55,048 nt of DNA from a virus (lineage: Duplodnaviria > Caudoviricetes), in the IMG/VR virus record IMGVR_UViG_3300022074_000050, positions 1 through 55,048 of that record; one strand, written 5' to 3'. The position numbers and the translations under genes are program-made. Positions 38,294 to 42,506 of the stretch are shown in pieces; position 1 is the stretch's first letter; each line of letters opens with the position of its first letter. Below the pieces are notes generated by a model. It worked only from the letters and a program-made list of their open reading frames with translations, was not told the origin of the DNA and made no database searches.

Positions 38294-38929
38294 TTATCCT
38301 TTAGAAATATCGTACCGATATTCGTCTCTTGAACCATAGCCTTGACCTAAGTTTTTAAGACCGTTTACTGCTTGAACAAAGCGTTGCTCATATTGAGCTA
38401 CTTCTTCTGGAACTTTAAGAAAAGTCGCAGCCTCCACTAAAGTGCCATATAACATCGCGTCGGGAGCATTATCAGAAAGCCATGTCGTTTCTGAACCTGA
38501 AGTCGTAGTTAACGATGCAGGCCGGTATTTATAGTGTAGTTCAAACGAATAACCTTGATCTGGAGTAGGTGCTAACATAAAAGTATTATCATCAAATAAT
38601 GCATAATACTTTGGAATGCCTGTCGTTGCAGAATTAGGCGTAAAGTCTCTAATAAAAGAAACGTGTTTATACAACAAGTAGCTATACACGCTGCTAGAGA
38701 TTACAGCCAAACTGTAAGGTGCTAAAAAGTCAGTTGGCGTACTTAAATAGGTGTTACTCGCAGAAGCAGAACCTGTTACGTTTTTTCTAAAAACCGGCAG
38801 CTCTACTGCTTTTAAAATCCGTTCTTCAGCTTCTTTAATAAACGTATCTAAATCAGAAACGAAAGTTGTTTCTGCTGTTTCGCAATAATCTTGAACCGTA
38901 GACTTCAATGTAGCTAATGTAAAACTCAT
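38294..38929 (-). CDS. Head-tail adaptor-like protein
   Basis: FIKEAEERI, G.PKYY, APTPD..Y..EL.Y, TWLS..APD.MLYG.L.EA. Confidence 0.7.
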   Translation of the reverse strand: MSFTLATLKSTVQDYCETAETTFVSDLDTFIKEAEERILKAVELPVFRKNVTGSASASNTYLSTPTDFLAPYSLAVISSSVYSYLLYKHVSFIRDFTPNSATTGIPKYYALFDDNTFMLAPTPDQGYSFELHYKYRPASLTTTSGSETTWLSDNAPDAMLYGTLVEAATFLKVPEEVAQYEQRFVQAVNGLKNLGQGYGSRDEYRYDISKG

Positions 38930-39294
38930 GTCGTTGTCACCGTAATAGTTCCGACACTACCTGTAGCTAAGACACCTACAAAATCAGTACCAATAGGGTC
39001 TACAACACTTAACGGTTGGCCACCTACATTAACGCCTGAATCAGTTGTATTACTCGGCCCTGTCGTTCTTACCAGTCCTAACTGCGCTTGTGGTAAAGGG
39101 GTTTCAGGTCTAGCTTGTCTTAGCCCCTCTGGATCAGAAACATGGTGCGGAGGATCTAGTTGTGGATGTTTAGGTTCGAAACATTCTGAACAAACTTTAA
39201 AGCCTGTCCATTCCATTTTCATCTGTAGATATTTGACACGAAACCCACAACGGTCACAGACGCCGTATGCGTATTTACCTACCGCAAAAGCCAT
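38926..39294 (-). CDS. Protein with N-terminal CxxC...CxxC zinc-finger-like motif
   Basis: CDRCG...CSECFEPKHPQL. Confidence 0.8.
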   Translation of the reverse strand: MAFAVGKYAYGVCDRCGFRVKYLQMKMEWTGFKVCSECFEPKHPQLDPPHHVSDPEGLRQARPETPLPQAQLGLVRTTGPSNTTDSGVNVGGQPLSVVDPIGTDFVGVLATGSVGTITVTTT

Positions 39295-39962
39295 TACAAA
39301 TAAGTCCGTTTAGGTACTAATCTTAATGAGCCGTCGTCATCGTAACGTATTGCGTTTATTAAGTTCTGTTCGTACAAAGGTTGTAATAACCCTGCTTTTT
39401 CTGGATTCTTTTTTATAGCTAAATAAAAAGCTAATCCAGAGGTAAGACAAGGAAGAAATCTACTAGGTAAATCTACATCGTTTACAGACTCTGTAATATC
39501 TTGGATGCGTTTCCAACGGTACGATACAAATTTATCTGTAGAGTTTTCAGGCGCAGGCCAGACATAGAGCTTCGGTGTAATCGTGCGCTCAAGATAATAT
39601 TGAGTGACTCGCGCTTTCGTTAACTTATTAGGTATATCTAAATATTCCCCACGATCTATACGATCTAGTTGGAAATCTGTTTGTATTCCGTTAGTTGTTC
39701 GACGTATAACAGCGTCTAAAATATCTATATCAAACTGATTCAAATCGTAAGTCGTTTGACCTTCAACTAAATCTAAAGATACTTGTTCTACTTCCCATAT
39801 TTGTATGCCCCTGTTTGACCAGTCAGCAAACATAATATTCATAGAACGGCGTGCGGTTACACCGTCGTAACCAGTACGATATTCTAGACCTGCTAGTTCA
39901 TACGCCTCTTCTATCGCATCAGCAGCATTTAGACTAAAAGTGCGTGTGCCGGATGTAGCCAT
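39294..39962 (-). CDS. Head-tail connector/tail tubular protein A-like
   Basis: MATSGT, ARRSMN....W.NRG, LYVWP.P, RFLPCL..GLA. Confidence 0.7.
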   Translation of the reverse strand: MATSGTRTFSLNAADAIEEAYELAGLEYRTGYDGVTARRSMNIMFADWSNRGIQIWEVEQVSLDLVEGQTTYDLNQFDIDILDAVIRRTTNGIQTDFQLDRIDRGEYLDIPNKLTKARVTQYYLERTITPKLYVWPAPENSTDKFVSYRWKRIQDITESVNDVDLPSRFLPCLTSGLAFYLAIKKNPEKAGLLQPLYEQNLINAIRYDDDGSLRLVPKRTYL

Positions 39963-40369
39963 TACCCATAGTTCTTCAAAAGTTCTAAGACAATAACATA
40001 ACTATCATTGGATGACGCGCCGATAGTCGTCAGGTTGAGATCTCCAGTTTTACCACTACCCGCAGTATTTTTTAAACCGCCGAACTCACTGAAGTCCATG
40101 TGACCATTACTATCCTGAGCTAATCCTAGGGCTATCGTATCAGTAGTCGCATCAAACAAAAGCTGTACTTGTGTAAAGCCGATAATTGAATGACTTACTT
40201 TTTCTATAAGCACACTACTACACGCAGTTCCATCTTCTCTCGCTGCCAAACCACTAACGTCAATCTTAGTTACGGCATCTTCGCCAGTACCGTCACTAAG
40301 ATTAGTTAGTTGTATGACAGCTTTATGCGTACCATCAGAGATAGTTGTTGAAGTTACTGCATCTGCCAT
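39962..40369 (-). CDS. Putative virion protein
   Basis: 135 aa, beta-rich. Confidence 0.75.
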   Translation of the reverse strand: MADAVTSTTISDGTHKAVIQLTNLSDGTGEDAVTKIDVSGLAAREDGTACSSVLIEKVSHSIIGFTQVQLLFDATTDTIALGLAQDSNGHMDFSEFGGLKNTAGSGKTGDLNLTTIGASSNDSYVIVLELLKNYG

Positions 40370-40386
40370 ATCAATTTACTCCCGTA

Positions 40387-40893
40387 TTAAGCGTCTGCAA
40401 ACGGAGTGACGATAGTGCCTGATCCAAGGGTCAGCCCTTCTATTGCATACTTCGCACTAGCGATAGCTGTAACTCGGATAATACTTCCTGCAAGACCGCC
40501 TTTAGTGCTGCCGTTTAACGTAATTACGTCGTTAGAAGCCCCAGAAATAAAGGTTTTACCAGTTGCGTCATCTACGCCTGTGTAAACCCCTCCAACAAAC
40601 TTATCGGTGCCGTCTGTCAAAATATCCATATCAGTAGCAGCTGTTACAACTACGAATGTAAATTGAGCACCTAAATTATTTGTTTGATCTGGGGAAGTTG
40701 GGTCGGTAGGACTAGTTGTAACGATTGAGGGCAAAGTAAACTTACCGTCTGCATCATTACAAAGAAGAATCTTACCCGCGTGAGATGCAACAGTTATTGT
40801 TGTGTCTGCGGTTAGGCTAACTGTAGCGTTAGTCCCTGCGTTTATAAAACCCGCCAAAGATCTGACTGGGCCAGCAAAAGTAGTCTGTGCCAT
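40387..40893 (-). CDS. Putative head decoration/fibre protein
   Basis: MAQTTFAGPVRS..GF start, Thr/Gly-rich; follows the capsid gene; GAGGT RBS. Confidence 0.7.
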   Translation of the reverse strand: MAQTTFAGPVRSLAGFINAGTNATVSLTADTTITVASHAGKILLCNDADGKFTLPSIVTTSPTDPTSPDQTNNLGAQFTFVVVTAATDMDILTDGTDKFVGGVYTGVDDATGKTFISGASNDVITLNGSTKGGLAGSIIRVTAIASAKYAIEGLTLGSGTIVTPFADA

Positions 40894-40906
40894 TATAAAT
40901 ACCTCT

Positions 40907-40977
40907 TTACGAAAGGATTCGCCCTAGAGTCTTCGTAACGTCCGTCTGAGTCGGTCGCTAGGGCTGTTTTTCTCAGA
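40907..40977 (-). ncRNA. Candidate structured RNA leader (two hairpins with complementary loops)
   Basis: TCTGAG/CTCAGA and TTACGAAG/TTTCGTAA stems; loops carry GCCCTAG and CTAGGGC. Confidence 0.55.
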
Positions 40978-40995
40978 TAATGCGTTTATACAGGA

Positions 40996-41030
40996 GAAAA
41001 AGAAAAGGGGCAACTAGTGCCCCTTTCTTT
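40996..41030 (-). terminator. Rho-independent terminator after the major capsid gene
   Basis: Stem AAAGGGGCA/TGCCCCTTT with a 5-nt loop, then TCTTTTT on the minus strand. Confidence 0.88.
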
Positions 41031-41037
41031 CGCGATA

Positions 41038-41949
41038 TTACGCAGCTCCAGGAGAGCCGAAAATACCACGCCAGTCGGAGAAGCCAAAGCTGTATCGCTC
41101 TCTGGCCTTGTACCGAACATTACCAGTTTCGAAGTCACCTTCCATACTGGTCGATACAGGAGAACGCACAAAGTGCTTCAGACCGTTAGGTACGTCAGTC
41201 GTCAGGAAGAACGCATCAGTATCTGTTAGATAATGATTGACGGTGTATCCCTCAGGAACCATACCCATGTTGCGTAGTGCGTTGATATCGTTATCAGCCG
41301 TACCGACTCGTCCAGGAGTTTCCAGTAGACGATCTGCAACGAATTGCAGTGCGGTTGGGATAATCAGCTTACGGGCTTGTGCGTTGATCTTTAGACCCCG
41401 CTCATCTTCGAAAGCTGCGATATCGATCAGCGACTGCTCTAGTGAGGTTTCATTAAGATCCGACGCAGTCGATAGCTCGTTGCGTTGGGTCTCATTACCT
41501 ACAGTCGGGTGATCAGTTGCACACAGTTCTTTGCCATCACCACCAACAAAAGAAGAACTAAACGCATTGTTCAATACGTTCGCGCCCTTAATGTTTTTAG
41601 TGGTCATCATAGAACGAGCAAGTGCTCGCGTATAACGTGAGGACAAGGTGTCGTACAAATTATCTTCAATAGCTTCTTCAGTCAATGAAAAAGCCAAAGC
41701 GATAGTTTCATGCGAGTACCGTGCAGTAAAAGATTCTTGTGCGGTGTCATAAGTAACACCAGAACCTTCAAACTTTACAGGAGCTTCGCCGAAGCCAGTC
41801 AACATTACCTCTTCTTCAAAAGCTCGTTCTGAAGTTTCGGTTTCGAAGATTTCTTCGTACTCAGCGTCGTAGCGATCATACTCTAGTCCGAAAAGAGCAT
41901 GAAGGCCAGGAACAAGCTCTTTTACGAGTTGCGCTCTATTAATAGCCAT
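41038..41949 (-). CDS. Major capsid protein
   Basis: 303 aa; AINRAQL.KEL.PGL..LFG.EY start, RERYSFG.SDWRG.FGS.G end; follows scaffold, precedes terminator. Confidence 0.9.
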   Translation of the reverse strand: MAINRAQLVKELVPGLHALFGLEYDRYDAEYEEIFETETSERAFEEEVMLTGFGEAPVKFEGSGVTYDTAQESFTARYSHETIALAFSLTEEAIEDNLYDTLSSRYTRALARSMMTTKNIKGANVLNNAFSSSFVGGDGKELCATDHPTVGNETQRNELSTASDLNETSLEQSLIDIAAFEDERGLKINAQARKLIIPTALQFVADRLLETPGRVGTADNDINALRNMGMVPEGYTVNHYLTDTDAFFLTTDVPNGLKHFVRSPVSTSMEGDFETGNVRYKARERYSFGFSDWRGIFGSPGAA

Positions 41950-41966
41950 TAGTTACTCTCCTTCGA

Positions 41967-42506
41967 CTATACAGCGAATACGTTAGTTGGGAACGAAAAA
42001 TACCCACGAGCATTAGCACCGATGCTATTGCTTGGGGAATCTACGAACCTATTCAACAACGCTATTCCGCTACTTGTTGTCGCTGTTACACCTTCTTTGG
42101 ATCGACCATTGTTAGTGCTACCAGCGGTAGTAGTGATAGTATATTTACTACCAATGAAACTTACGGCAGGAGTACCTGCTGTAAATTGTGCTTCATACAC
42201 GATTGCAGGATCGGTATACACATACGCTTCTGCGTCAGCACCGCCTAGCGTAGCTAGGTCTGCTGTCCACATATTAGAGTATGTAGGTGTACCGTCTGTT
42301 GCGGTGTAGAAAACGCCAGCAAAAACTCCAGCAGGAGTTCCTGTAGCAGTGCCTTGGATAACGTACCCAGAAGAAAGATTGACTACATCTCCAGTAAAAA
42401 TGGAGGCGTTGGTCGCGCTTGCAATACGCAATTTCTGGGGACGGATCGTTCCACCATAAAGGTGGTAGGCTGGGGTGAACCCGTTAGGGGCGTCAGTATT
42501 AGCCAT
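41967..42506 (-). CDS. Capsid-associated (cement/decoration-like) protein
   Basis: MAN.D.P.GF.P, IFTGD.V, GVF.G..Y, DP..VYE.Q; immediately upstream of MCP. Confidence 0.7.
   Translation of the reverse strand: MANTDAPNGFTPAYHLYGGTIRPQKLRIASATNASIFTGDVVNLSSGYVIQGTATGTPAGVFAGVFYTATDGTPTYSNMWTADLATLGGADAEAYVYTDPAIVYEAQFTAGTPAVSFIGSKYTITTTAGSTNNGRSKEGVTATTSSGIALLNRFVDSPSNSIGANARGYFSFPTNVFAV

Follow-up and report, generated by a model that had tools for sequence, protein, structure and literature searches.

Between the terminator-like hairpin that follows the major capsid protein gene of a phage genome and the ribosome-binding site of the next gene, three complementary pairs of segments are interleaved within some 70 nucleotides. 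Is this arrangement a genuine RNA fold and, if so, what does it do for the gene that it precedes? The window analysed here is the whole of an IMG/VR virus record of 55,048 bp, 91% complete. An earlier note, made from the letters of the sequence, had read the arrangement as two hairpins locked by a loop-loop helix and had offered three guesses at its function: a cis-regulatory RNA for the genes after the capsid gene, a nuclease-blocking fold or a small structural RNA able to multimerise. We find that the motif belongs to a large family of leader RNAs of about 70 nt, preceding a probable capsid-decoration gene in HTVC023P-like marine phages and related phages, and that its fold is more intricate than the earlier note described. 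The leader probably controls the use of the decoration-gene message. Our preferred reading, to which we give a probability of roughly 0.55, is that the motif acts in cis, as a leader in which the 5' end of the mRNA is buried and the access of ribosomes is set or gated, probably together with a trans-acting partner. We regard the fold as certain and this function as less so.

The gene upstream of the motif encodes a 303-aa protein that matches the PHROG major head protein family phrog_371 (E 3e-24) and the Pfam family Phage_capsid_4 (E 1e-13), with relatives in the Pelagibacter phages HTVC023P and HTVC027P, the Roseobacter phages CRP-901 and CRP-902, and others. The terminator-like hairpin located behind it by a consensus scan has 10 pairs, five of them G-C, and a loop of 5 nt, after which comes CTTTTTCTCC. 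From 5' to 3' along the minus strand, the features of the locus are as follows.

41038..41949, minus strand: major capsid protein gene (303 aa), an ORF ending in TAA; upstream neighbour of the motif
40993..41027, minus strand: terminator-like hairpin (41027..41003) plus T run, 3' of the capsid gene, from the consensus scan
40985..40990, minus strand: -10-like box TATAAA, ending 8 nt 5' of P1; putative promoter element for the decoration-gene transcript, from the sequence
40972..40976, minus strand: P1 5' strand CUGAG (strand A of the earlier note), by covariation
40965..40971, minus strand: L1 linker AAAAACA, variable and A/U-rich, by composition across instances
40956..40964, minus strand: P2 5' strand GCCCUAGCG (strand B plus two positions), by covariation
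40951..40955, minus strand: junction L2, ACCGA, family consensus ACYGN; its CCG (40954..40952) is the 5' strand of P4
40946..40950, minus strand: P1 3' strand CUCAG (strand A'), by covariation
40940..40945, minus strand: junction A + CGGAC, family consensus CRGAC; its CGG (40944..40942) is the 3' strand of P4
40931..40938, minus strand: P3 5' strand UUACGAAG (strand C), by an own-partner test across types
40921..40929, minus strand: P2 3' strand CUCUAGGGC (strand B' plus two positions), within the P3 hairpin loop
40915..40920, minus strand: spacer GAAUCC, variable, separating P2 from the P3 3' strand, by comparison of instances
40907..40914, minus strand: P3 3' strand UUUCGUAA (strand C'), adjoining the Shine-Dalgarno sequence
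40902..40906, minus strand: Shine-Dalgarno sequence AGAGG, 8 nt 5' of the ATG at 40893, from the sequence
40387..40893, minus strand: 168-aa gene downstream of the leader, encoding a probable capsid decoration (spike/cement) protein

The three pairings are indeed present on the minus strand. Pairing A joins TCTGAG (40977..40972) to CTCAGA (40950..40945), pairing B joins GCCCTAG (40964..40958) to CTAGGGC (40927..40921), and pairing C joins TTACGAAG (40938..40931) to TTTCGTAA (40914..40907) with one G.U included; their strands follow the order A-B-A'-C-B'-C' across 40977..40907. When the 102 nt were shuffled 3000 times with dinucleotides preserved, an interleaved triple with at least 6, 7 and 8 pairs never appeared, and a 5/7/7 triple did so in seven of the 3000. 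The nested-only minimum free energy of 105 nt is unexceptional (z = -0.30) because the fold is pseudoknotted and ViennaRNA is unable to score pseudoknots; this quantity was therefore discarded as a test. The z of -3.37 obtained for a 150-nt fold comes mostly from the terminator. The nested minimum for the window, at -19.3 kcal/mol, may be set against a crude sum for the knotted fold of -8.5 for P1 and P3 together plus about -11.9 for the P2 duplex. By this crude sum the knotted fold is about as good as the nested one and no better, which counts against the preferred reading.

Relatives of the locus were collected by protein-guided retrieval from IMG/VR, which yielded 160 loci, 107 of them with both genes present. 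From the 100 nt preceding the homologous gene came 74 unique sequences, and the motif is carried by 71 of these. One anchored pattern parsed 66 of the 74, and all 66 have five of five P1 pairs together with at least seven of nine P2 pairs; five more form the window's own clade, in which ACCG...CGGAC replaces ACTG...CAGAC, and three are variants (L125, L140 and L149). For P2, 72 sequences were aligned with MAFFT, giving 65 distinct rows. MAFFT alone split the 5' strand of P1, and pairs of this helix were therefore counted after fitting to a model: a covariance model was made from 22 sequences of equal loop length, and 69 matches were then aligned to it. Pair changes for P1, P2 and P3 are given as raw counts that ignore kinship.

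The loop-loop helix emerges strongly. Across its nine positions P2 is 93.0% paired in the MAFFT alignment, with slid controls at 31-41%, and all nine pairs have changed on both sides (154 cells); in an ungapped alignment of 40 instances the paired fraction is 96.2%. Its non-canonical pairs comprise 66 G.U and eight A.C, an asymmetry which places the fold on the mRNA strand. In the window, P2 joins 40964..40956 to 40929..40921 with a single C.U mismatch at position 8. P1 (columns 4-8 with 70-74) is 100% paired in 62 distinct rows of the model-fitted alignment, where four of its five pairs have changed on both sides and one-sided changes number zero. Since a model-fitted alignment favours structure, a shuffle control was added: a 5/5 partner for P1 was observed in 66 of 66 sequences, against a probability of 0.029 in shuffled upstream spans. 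Fifteen distinct combinations of P1 pairs occur in 248 instances among the matches listed. The pair U40977-A40945 is a possible sixth P1 pair in the window's clade only.

A fourth pairing of 3 bp, P4, flanks the 3' strand of P1. It joins CYG to CRG and in the window consists of C40954-G40942, C40953-G40943 and G40952-C40944. Since CYG pairs with CRG, the 3' strand of P1 is closed in a 6-nt loop and P1 becomes a pseudoknot between that loop and the 5' strand. P4 was assessed by four pattern scans of one collection with identical validation, whose results are fractions among the matches listed and not population frequencies: the form ACTG/CAGAC, with a middle U-A pair, was validated in 107 of 112 matches listed; ACCG/CGGAC, with C-G, in 76 of 117; ACTG/CGGAC, with U.G, in 18 of 114 (one of which, L590, is chance-like); and ACCG/CAGAC, with C.A, in none of 119. 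When 40 sequences were aligned, U-A formed the middle pair in 19 cases, C-G in 13 and U.G in six, none being unpaired, and the flanking C-G and G-C pairs are invariant. The earlier note had thus been right that its helices A, B and C exist, while their extents needed correction: B spans nine positions, only 5 bp of A are conserved across the family, and the CCG/CGG pairing had been missed.

The segments between the helices differ greatly in their constraint. The L1 linker varies from 6 to 15 nt and is 45% A and 42% U (156 instances among the matches listed). The A, C and G of the junction ACYGN are invariant, its middle Y covarying with the R of CRGAC, and the AGA that precedes the 3' strand of P2 is kept in 152 of 156 instances among the matches listed; in the window this near-invariant AGA is made up of the last AG of the P3 5' strand and A40930. 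Altogether about 12 near-invariant unpaired nucleotides lie at the multi-helix junction. These nucleotides suggest a trans-acting partner, whether protein, ion or small molecule, that recognises or stabilises the fold. So many invariant unpaired positions would be superfluous in a plain stabiliser or translational damper, and this is a second point against the preferred reading.

P3 is the most changeable of the helices. It was surveyed by a scan independent of the gene, with the pattern ACTG N CYNRG CAGAC N4-10 AGA, which occurs in at least 120 stretches; away from contig ends, 107 of 112 matches listed have a perfect P1 and at least seven of nine P2 pairs. In many clades the variable part after CAGAC pairs with a segment just 5' of the Shine-Dalgarno sequence, although the sequences involved are quite different. 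Among the matches listed, 19 of 33 distinct 6-nt core types find a 6/6 partner in their own leader, against 34 perfect partners in 1056 (3.2%) when types are matched with one another's leaders. A perfect P3 is present in 75 of 156 instances, and a perfect 6-bp core in 147 of 248 pooled instances, in both cases among the matches listed. All six core pairs have changed on both sides in an ungapped set of 40 instances of equal geometry; as this set was preselected for perfect pairing, its diversity and not its percentage is the evidence. The covariation that the earlier note had proposed seeking in homologous intergenic regions is found in P1, P2 and P3 alike.

The position of P3 relative to the ribosome-binding site is well defined. 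Among the matches listed that have a perfect P3, the 3' core 6-mer begins 4-9 nt past P2, the core ends 9-19 nt 5' of the start codon in 73 of 75 instances, and the Shine-Dalgarno sequence starts within -5 to +3 nt of the core in 58 of 75. In the window, as the earlier note had seen, the last stem abuts the Shine-Dalgarno sequence directly: the 3' strand of P3 occupies 40914..40907 and AGAGG begins at 40906. Since the Shine-Dalgarno core lies just outside P3 in most members that have this helix, simple sequestration is not general. Two clades dispense with P3. In one the junction reads xGCCAAGA, and a local hairpin that carries the Shine-Dalgarno sequence stands in for P3; in the other the junction contains CUCC, which can pair with GGAG. 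In a related form, type B, CCUAG pairs with a CUAGG that overlaps the Shine-Dalgarno sequence.

A conserved core joined to a modular part near the Shine-Dalgarno sequence (P3, a local hairpin or the anti-Shine-Dalgarno CUCC) is also what might be expected of a riboswitch, in which the P1/P2/P4 junction would be the aptamer and P3, or its clade-specific substitutes, the expression platform at the ribosome-binding site. The near-invariant unpaired junction nucleotides agree with this idea, as does the likeness to the H-type riboswitches SAM-II, SAM-V, preQ1-II and guanidine-III, which share with the motif a compact pseudoknot, conserved junctions and a Shine-Dalgarno sequence at the 3' edge of the last helix, a layout seen in SAM-II and preQ1-II in particular. 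SAM-V occurs in SAR11, the host group of HTVC023P. The motif differs from these riboswitches in that its downstream gene is structural and that no known riboswitch model in Rfam 15 matches it: SAM-II, SAM-V, preQ1-I, preQ1-II, preQ1-III, guanidine-III, fluoride and ZTP all gave nothing at E <= 10 in 40000-42000 or at E <= 1 in 12 other motif loci. The riboswitches that we know of control metabolic or transport genes. Here a single structural gene family would be regulated (246 of 248 instances among the matches listed), with no obvious link to a ligand, and a conserved, mutually exclusive alternative pairing was not found. We consider a riboswitch unlikely.

Where the transcript begins bears on both the preferred reading and the next alternative. 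A -10-like hexamer ends 6-9 nt 5' of P1 in 84 of 146 unique upstream contexts, and 27 of the 146 are without such a box; a scan requiring both -35 and -10 hexamers found no promoter in 40300-41600. In the clade whose P1 reads CUGGG, the terminator stem stands directly against P1 and the -10-like box is missing, so that the motif is not at the primary 5' end there. The RNA runs are assembled contigs, a form from which transcript ends, strand and level are not readable. In run X5, an rRNA-depleted metatranscriptome, an assembled contig covers 40387-40973 and stops there, P1 starting at 40976; as a transcript 5' end this edge is a weak hint. A 151-nt piece from run X4 bridges the terminator and the motif (40916-41066) and, being a contig, is neutral on read-through, and the single all-spanning contig of run X1 could derive from DNA or be where the record itself came from. 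Stretches left uncovered by X4, X5 and X6 carry no information on transcription.

The coincidence of the X5 contig end at 40973 with the 5' edge of the motif would also suit a ribozyme that cuts itself, or a site dedicated to processing by an RNase; either would free the decoration message from the capsid message or terminator and leave a structured 5' end. Processing would make sense in the promoterless clade with the terminator against P1, and in size, pseudoknotted topology and count of invariant junction nucleotides the motif is comparable to small self-cleaving ribozymes. The order of helices, a-b-a'-c-b'-c', is that of the pistol ribozyme. With pistol the motif shares small size, occurrence in phage and environmental sequences, a 5-bp hairpin and a loop pairing inside a downstream hairpin. 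It differs in its loop-loop helix, of nine positions where pistol has six, in lacking both the P3 hairpin of pistol and the conserved G-U cleavage dinucleotide before the closing strand, and in having the extra P4 pairing and a fused ribosome-binding site.

Membership in the pistol family (RF02679) was rejected, the motif giving no match to the model on the RNA's own strand and being without the cleavage-site architecture. The one match of the pistol model lies on the opposite (+) strand, at 40879-40929, with 16.9 bits and E 4.8 against a gathering score of 34.5 bits; there was none at E <= 1 in the 12 other motif loci. No ribozyme model matches the RNA, and the pistol cleavage segment corresponds here to a short, unconserved spacer. 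The X5 contig runs unbroken through all junctions from 40973 to 40387, so that, if it is built of RNA reads, some molecules have no internal cleavage. In most members the -10-like box accounts for the 5' edge, and a strict tie to the ribosome-binding site of one gene is unusual for self-cleaving ribozymes. Cleavage or dedicated processing at the motif accordingly seems improbable to us.

The gene that the motif serves encodes a 168-aa protein beginning MAQTTFAGPV, for which no Pfam or PHROG family was found. Its AF2 model (pLDDT 81.8) has as best fold match the capsid spike of Pseudomonas phage Pa223 (9ny6_C, Foldseek E 1e-5), a match which VIA puts at Z 10.1 and rmsd 2.2 over 98 aligned residues, followed by head-binding domains of tailspikes. 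A profile of the family retrieved nothing meaningful from PDB sequences (best E 0.32). In phage DSL-LC04 the gene at the same post-capsid position is annotated 'cement protein'. On the strength of the predicted fold and this position, a capsid decoration protein of the spike or cement kind is the probable identity.

Phages provide precedents for proteins that govern their own messages. Autogenous control by way of pseudoknots or hairpins in the leader is established for structural and DNA-binding proteins such as T4 gp32, the MS2 coat protein and the P22 scaffold. The motif could likewise be a translational operator bound by a late phage protein, such as the decoration or capsid protein or another, matching synthesis to capsid assembly. 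In accordance with this, it adjoins the ribosome-binding site, is specific to one gene, and is inherited together with the 12 conserved N-terminal residues even where the remaining protein differs. The T4 gene 32 leader, also a phage pseudoknot upstream of one gene's ribosome-binding site and followed by an A/U-rich stretch, offers the best analogy for how the motif could work; the motif differs in having four helices and a double pseudoknot, and its downstream gene specifies a spike/cement-like capsid protein. With 8 K+R to 14 D+E in a count by eye, that protein is acidic, which argues against the decoration protein as the RNA-binding partner, and with its predicted beta-sandwich, spike-like fold it offers no recognisable RNA-binding feature. 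An operator of this kind is a sub-case of the preferred reading and not a true alternative to it; for that class of partner alone, we think it rather unlikely.

The bond between motif and gene is tight. Among the matches listed, the downstream ORF begins M-A-x-T/S-T-F-x-G-P-V/I-R/K-S in 246 of 248 unique instances, its length being highly variable (55-315 aa, median 168), and of the 228 instances that have 700 nt or more of upstream sequence, 220 show a same-strand capsid homologue there. In some loci 336-656 nt are inserted after the capsid gene, and the motif still adjoins the homologue of the 168-aa gene. In the 55-kb genome of the window the motif is single-copy, the next best model match reaching 14.7 bits (E 0.94). 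The window has the 5-bp P1, the nine-position P2, the P4 form CYG/CRG and the ACYGN, CRGAC and AGA junctions by which the family is defined, as well as a P3 of eight pairs placed around the P2 3' strand and ending at the Shine-Dalgarno sequence; its scores are 55.1 bits under model R2 and 59.1 under R1, values that are not independent since the window is in both seeds. With the motif attached to the post-capsid gene despite these inserts, and single-copy, a cis-regulatory role for that gene would be the best-fitting of the three functions that the earlier note had suggested.

Two further explanations fare poorly against this association. A nascent-RNA element acting at the level of transcription, which would modify RNA polymerase as in HK022 put-like processive antitermination, might be placed just where the motif is, a short way past a likely promoter and ahead of co-oriented structural genes (adaptor genes and downstream ORFs), and so head the structural operon. 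The motif, however, is always fused to the ribosome-binding site of one family, with the P3 core 9-19 nt from the start in the 73 of 75 matches listed noted above; some clades have no promoter in front of it, and it bears no resemblance to the two simple stem-loops of put. We regard such an element as very improbable.

Still further from the data is a free structural RNA that multimerises by loop-loop pairing in the manner of phi29 pRNA, or a chance arrangement. Such a helix could in principle form between molecules, and pRNA is likewise a phage RNA that uses loop-loop pairing: it is a free RNA of 120-174 nt that pairs between molecules as part of the packaging motor. The motif lies instead within an mRNA leader, where the pairing is most simply intramolecular; it is continuous with the ribosome-binding site of the message and sits mid-genome, at 40.9 kb of the 55-kb record, unlike pRNA, which is encoded near a genome end, and pRNA gave no match at E <= 10 in the Rfam search of 40000-42000. 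A trans partner for the P2 loops elsewhere in the genome gave no signal either, GCCCTAG occurring seven times against 4.75 expected, a number that 17 of 100 shuffles reach. Chance is excluded by the shuffles and by the covariation. The comparison with pRNA made in the earlier note has no support, and we assign this pair of explanations a next to negligible likelihood.

Beyond the environmental records, the motif is carried by the cultured Pelagibacter phage HTVC023P (50.6 bits with model R2) and, at 35.4 bits, by DSL-LC04, a phage from freshwater. The same model missed it in CRP-902, HTVC027P and the Rhizobium phage RHph_Y25; HTVC027P and CRP-902 hold variant forms, and in RHph_Y25 only 12 nt separate the capsid gene from the next gene. 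A blastn search of cultured phages with the 64-nt motif returned chance matches only, the query being too short for BLAST.

The earlier note did not recognise the RNA as a known family, and the searches bear this out. Rfam 15 at permissive thresholds gave no relevant match in 40000-42000 (E <= 10) or in the 12 other motif loci (E <= 1); in HTVC023P a sub-threshold match to the L20 leader lies just upstream of the motif, at 26.7 bits against a gathering score of 58.7. The portions of the literature covered on HTVC023P, on pelagiphage RNA motifs and on candidate structured RNAs of phages contain no description of the motif. The parts of Fremin et al. 2023 (PMC10690425) consulted report covarying intergenic motifs from IMG/VR beside phage genes. 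Some of these lie next to capsid genes, five candidates preceding a major capsid protein family, and the gp32 pseudoknot is mentioned there too, with no model of the T4 element in Rfam. The portions of the main text covered there name no candidate in front of a decoration or cement gene; the candidate list of about or over ten thousand is in the supplements (PMC10690425), and the motif may be among these, unnamed. We take the motif to be a real and widespread RNA family that is absent from Rfam 15 and from the literature searched.

How might such a leader work? As the covariation shows, P1 arises when the 6-nt loop of the P4 mini-hairpin pairs with the strand at the 5' edge of the motif, and P2 when the strand between the P1 5' strand and the P4 hairpin pairs with the loop of the P3 hairpin. 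The near-invariant junctions ACYGN, CRGAC and AGA converge where P1, P2, P3 and P4 meet, and the 3' strand of P3 terminates at the Shine-Dalgarno sequence or overlaps it. In most members transcription presumably starts 0-3 nt 5' of P1. The fold would in that event bury the 5' end of the mRNA and shield it from 5'-end-dependent decay, and a rigid helix, lying against the ribosome-binding site or covering it, would set or gate the initiation of decoration-protein translation. The exclusive link to one ribosome-binding site, the frequent position at a likely 5' end, the modular helix near the Shine-Dalgarno sequence and the near-invariant junction together make the cis-acting leader the best fit. 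That the leader affects translation or stability, and that it has a partner, is what we infer from these features of the fold and its place. The nuclease-blocking fold of the earlier note could, as sequestration of the 5' end, be part of this reading.

A bolder interpretation takes the invariant four-helix junction to be a catalytic or ligand-binding core, and the family to represent a self-cleaving ribozyme or a riboswitch of a new class. We hold this to be doubtful, if worth keeping in mind. In one variant of it the fold would thread or bury the 5' end of the mRNA and form a bacterial-phage counterpart of exonuclease-resistant RNAs.

To our knowledge, almost nothing is known of how HTVC023P-type phages control the expression of their late genes. 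What this family brings to the question is a compact fold of four helices and two pseudoknots, with heavy covariation and some 12 invariant nucleotides at its junctions, in hundreds of distinct natural variants. Comparable motifs have earlier proved to be riboswitches, ribozymes or protein-binding operators. The motif is directly testable because the cultured pair of HTVC023P and Pelagibacter HTCC1062 carries it, and its natural variants (type A with and without P3, type B and remnants) constitute a ready-made mutational series. Parts of one report (PMC9599517) place HTVC023P-type pelagiphages and their relatives among the most abundant marine viruses. Were the junction a ribozyme or riboswitch core, it would tie the synthesis of the decoration protein in these phages to an intracellular signal or to RNA processing; should the leader do no more than set the stability of the mRNA and its rate of translation, it would still be a new leader family for RNA databases and for phage annotation.

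The proteins encoded after the type A leader, the pseudoknotted RNA (helices P1-P4) that precedes the Shine-Dalgarno sequence (SD) of the decoration gene, have only their first ~12-25 residues in common (M-A-x-T/S-T-F-x-G-P-V...; loci L161-L278 and L285-L403), beyond which they differ both in sequence and in length, from 55 to 315 aa. Judged from these sequences, the shared N-terminus looks like a conserved capsid-anchoring arm that would have been inherited together with the leader RNA, while the outer domains were swapped.

The same start of the protein, MATSTFSGP, is still found after a reduced form of the leader, in which GACUGAC and GCCAAGAC are retained directly 5' of the SD, while the P1 3' strand, the junction CAGAC and the P2 3' strand are absent; this form does not score with R2, the covariance model of the type A leader. 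Its locations are:

L281, 3500-3560, reduced leader, Roseobacter phage CRP-902
L125, reduced leader

In Rhizobium phage RHph_Y25 (L284, 1467-1480), a homologue of the decoration protein begins only 12 nt after the major head gene, and neither leader nor motif is present in this gap. The homologue is distant (31% identity), and the conserved N-terminal arm is missing from the alignment.

Another leader, type B, is related to type A and precedes the same gene family:

L283, 1430-1502, type B leader, Pelagibacter phage HTVC027P
L140, L149 and L640-L757, further type B leaders

Its elements are, in order, a 7-9-nt strand, GACGNGUAUAGUCGACGG, CCUAG, AGA, a complementary 7-9-nt strand, a spacer and a CUAGG that overlaps the SD, with a TATACAAT-like box immediately upstream of the whole. 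Covariation in the long helix is rich, as illustrated by the pairs GAAUACUG/CAGUAUUC, GGAUAUCG/CGAUAUCC and GAUCAUAG/CUAUGAUC. The exact 18-nt type B core occurs in at least 120 stretches, 117 being unique among the matches listed.

In the window, the spacer between the capsid and decoration genes measures 144 nt and is among only about a dozen gaps exceeding 100 nt; the long ORFs of the whole record are tightly packed and lie nearly all on the minus strand. Downstream of the decoration gene, a 122-aa ORF separates two paralogues:

38294-38929, minus strand, SU10 adaptor-domain gene (Pfam PF24175, E 2e-26)
39294-39962, minus strand, SU10 adaptor-domain gene (Pfam PF24175, E 7e-12)

In all three cultured relatives (HTVC023P, CRP-902 and DSL-LC04), a GroES co-chaperonin encoded by the phage is annotated about 2 kb upstream of the capsid gene, four genes ahead of it. 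In HTVC023P, a PurM-like gene lies three genes downstream of the decoration gene.

Type A leaders of the C-G form, named for the middle pair of P4 (ACCG/CGGAC, loci L285-L403), are higher in G+C. Since the IMG/VR sample numbers of many of them differ from those in the U-A set (ACTG/CAGAC), which looks marine, the motif family probably reaches beyond pelagic marine phages.
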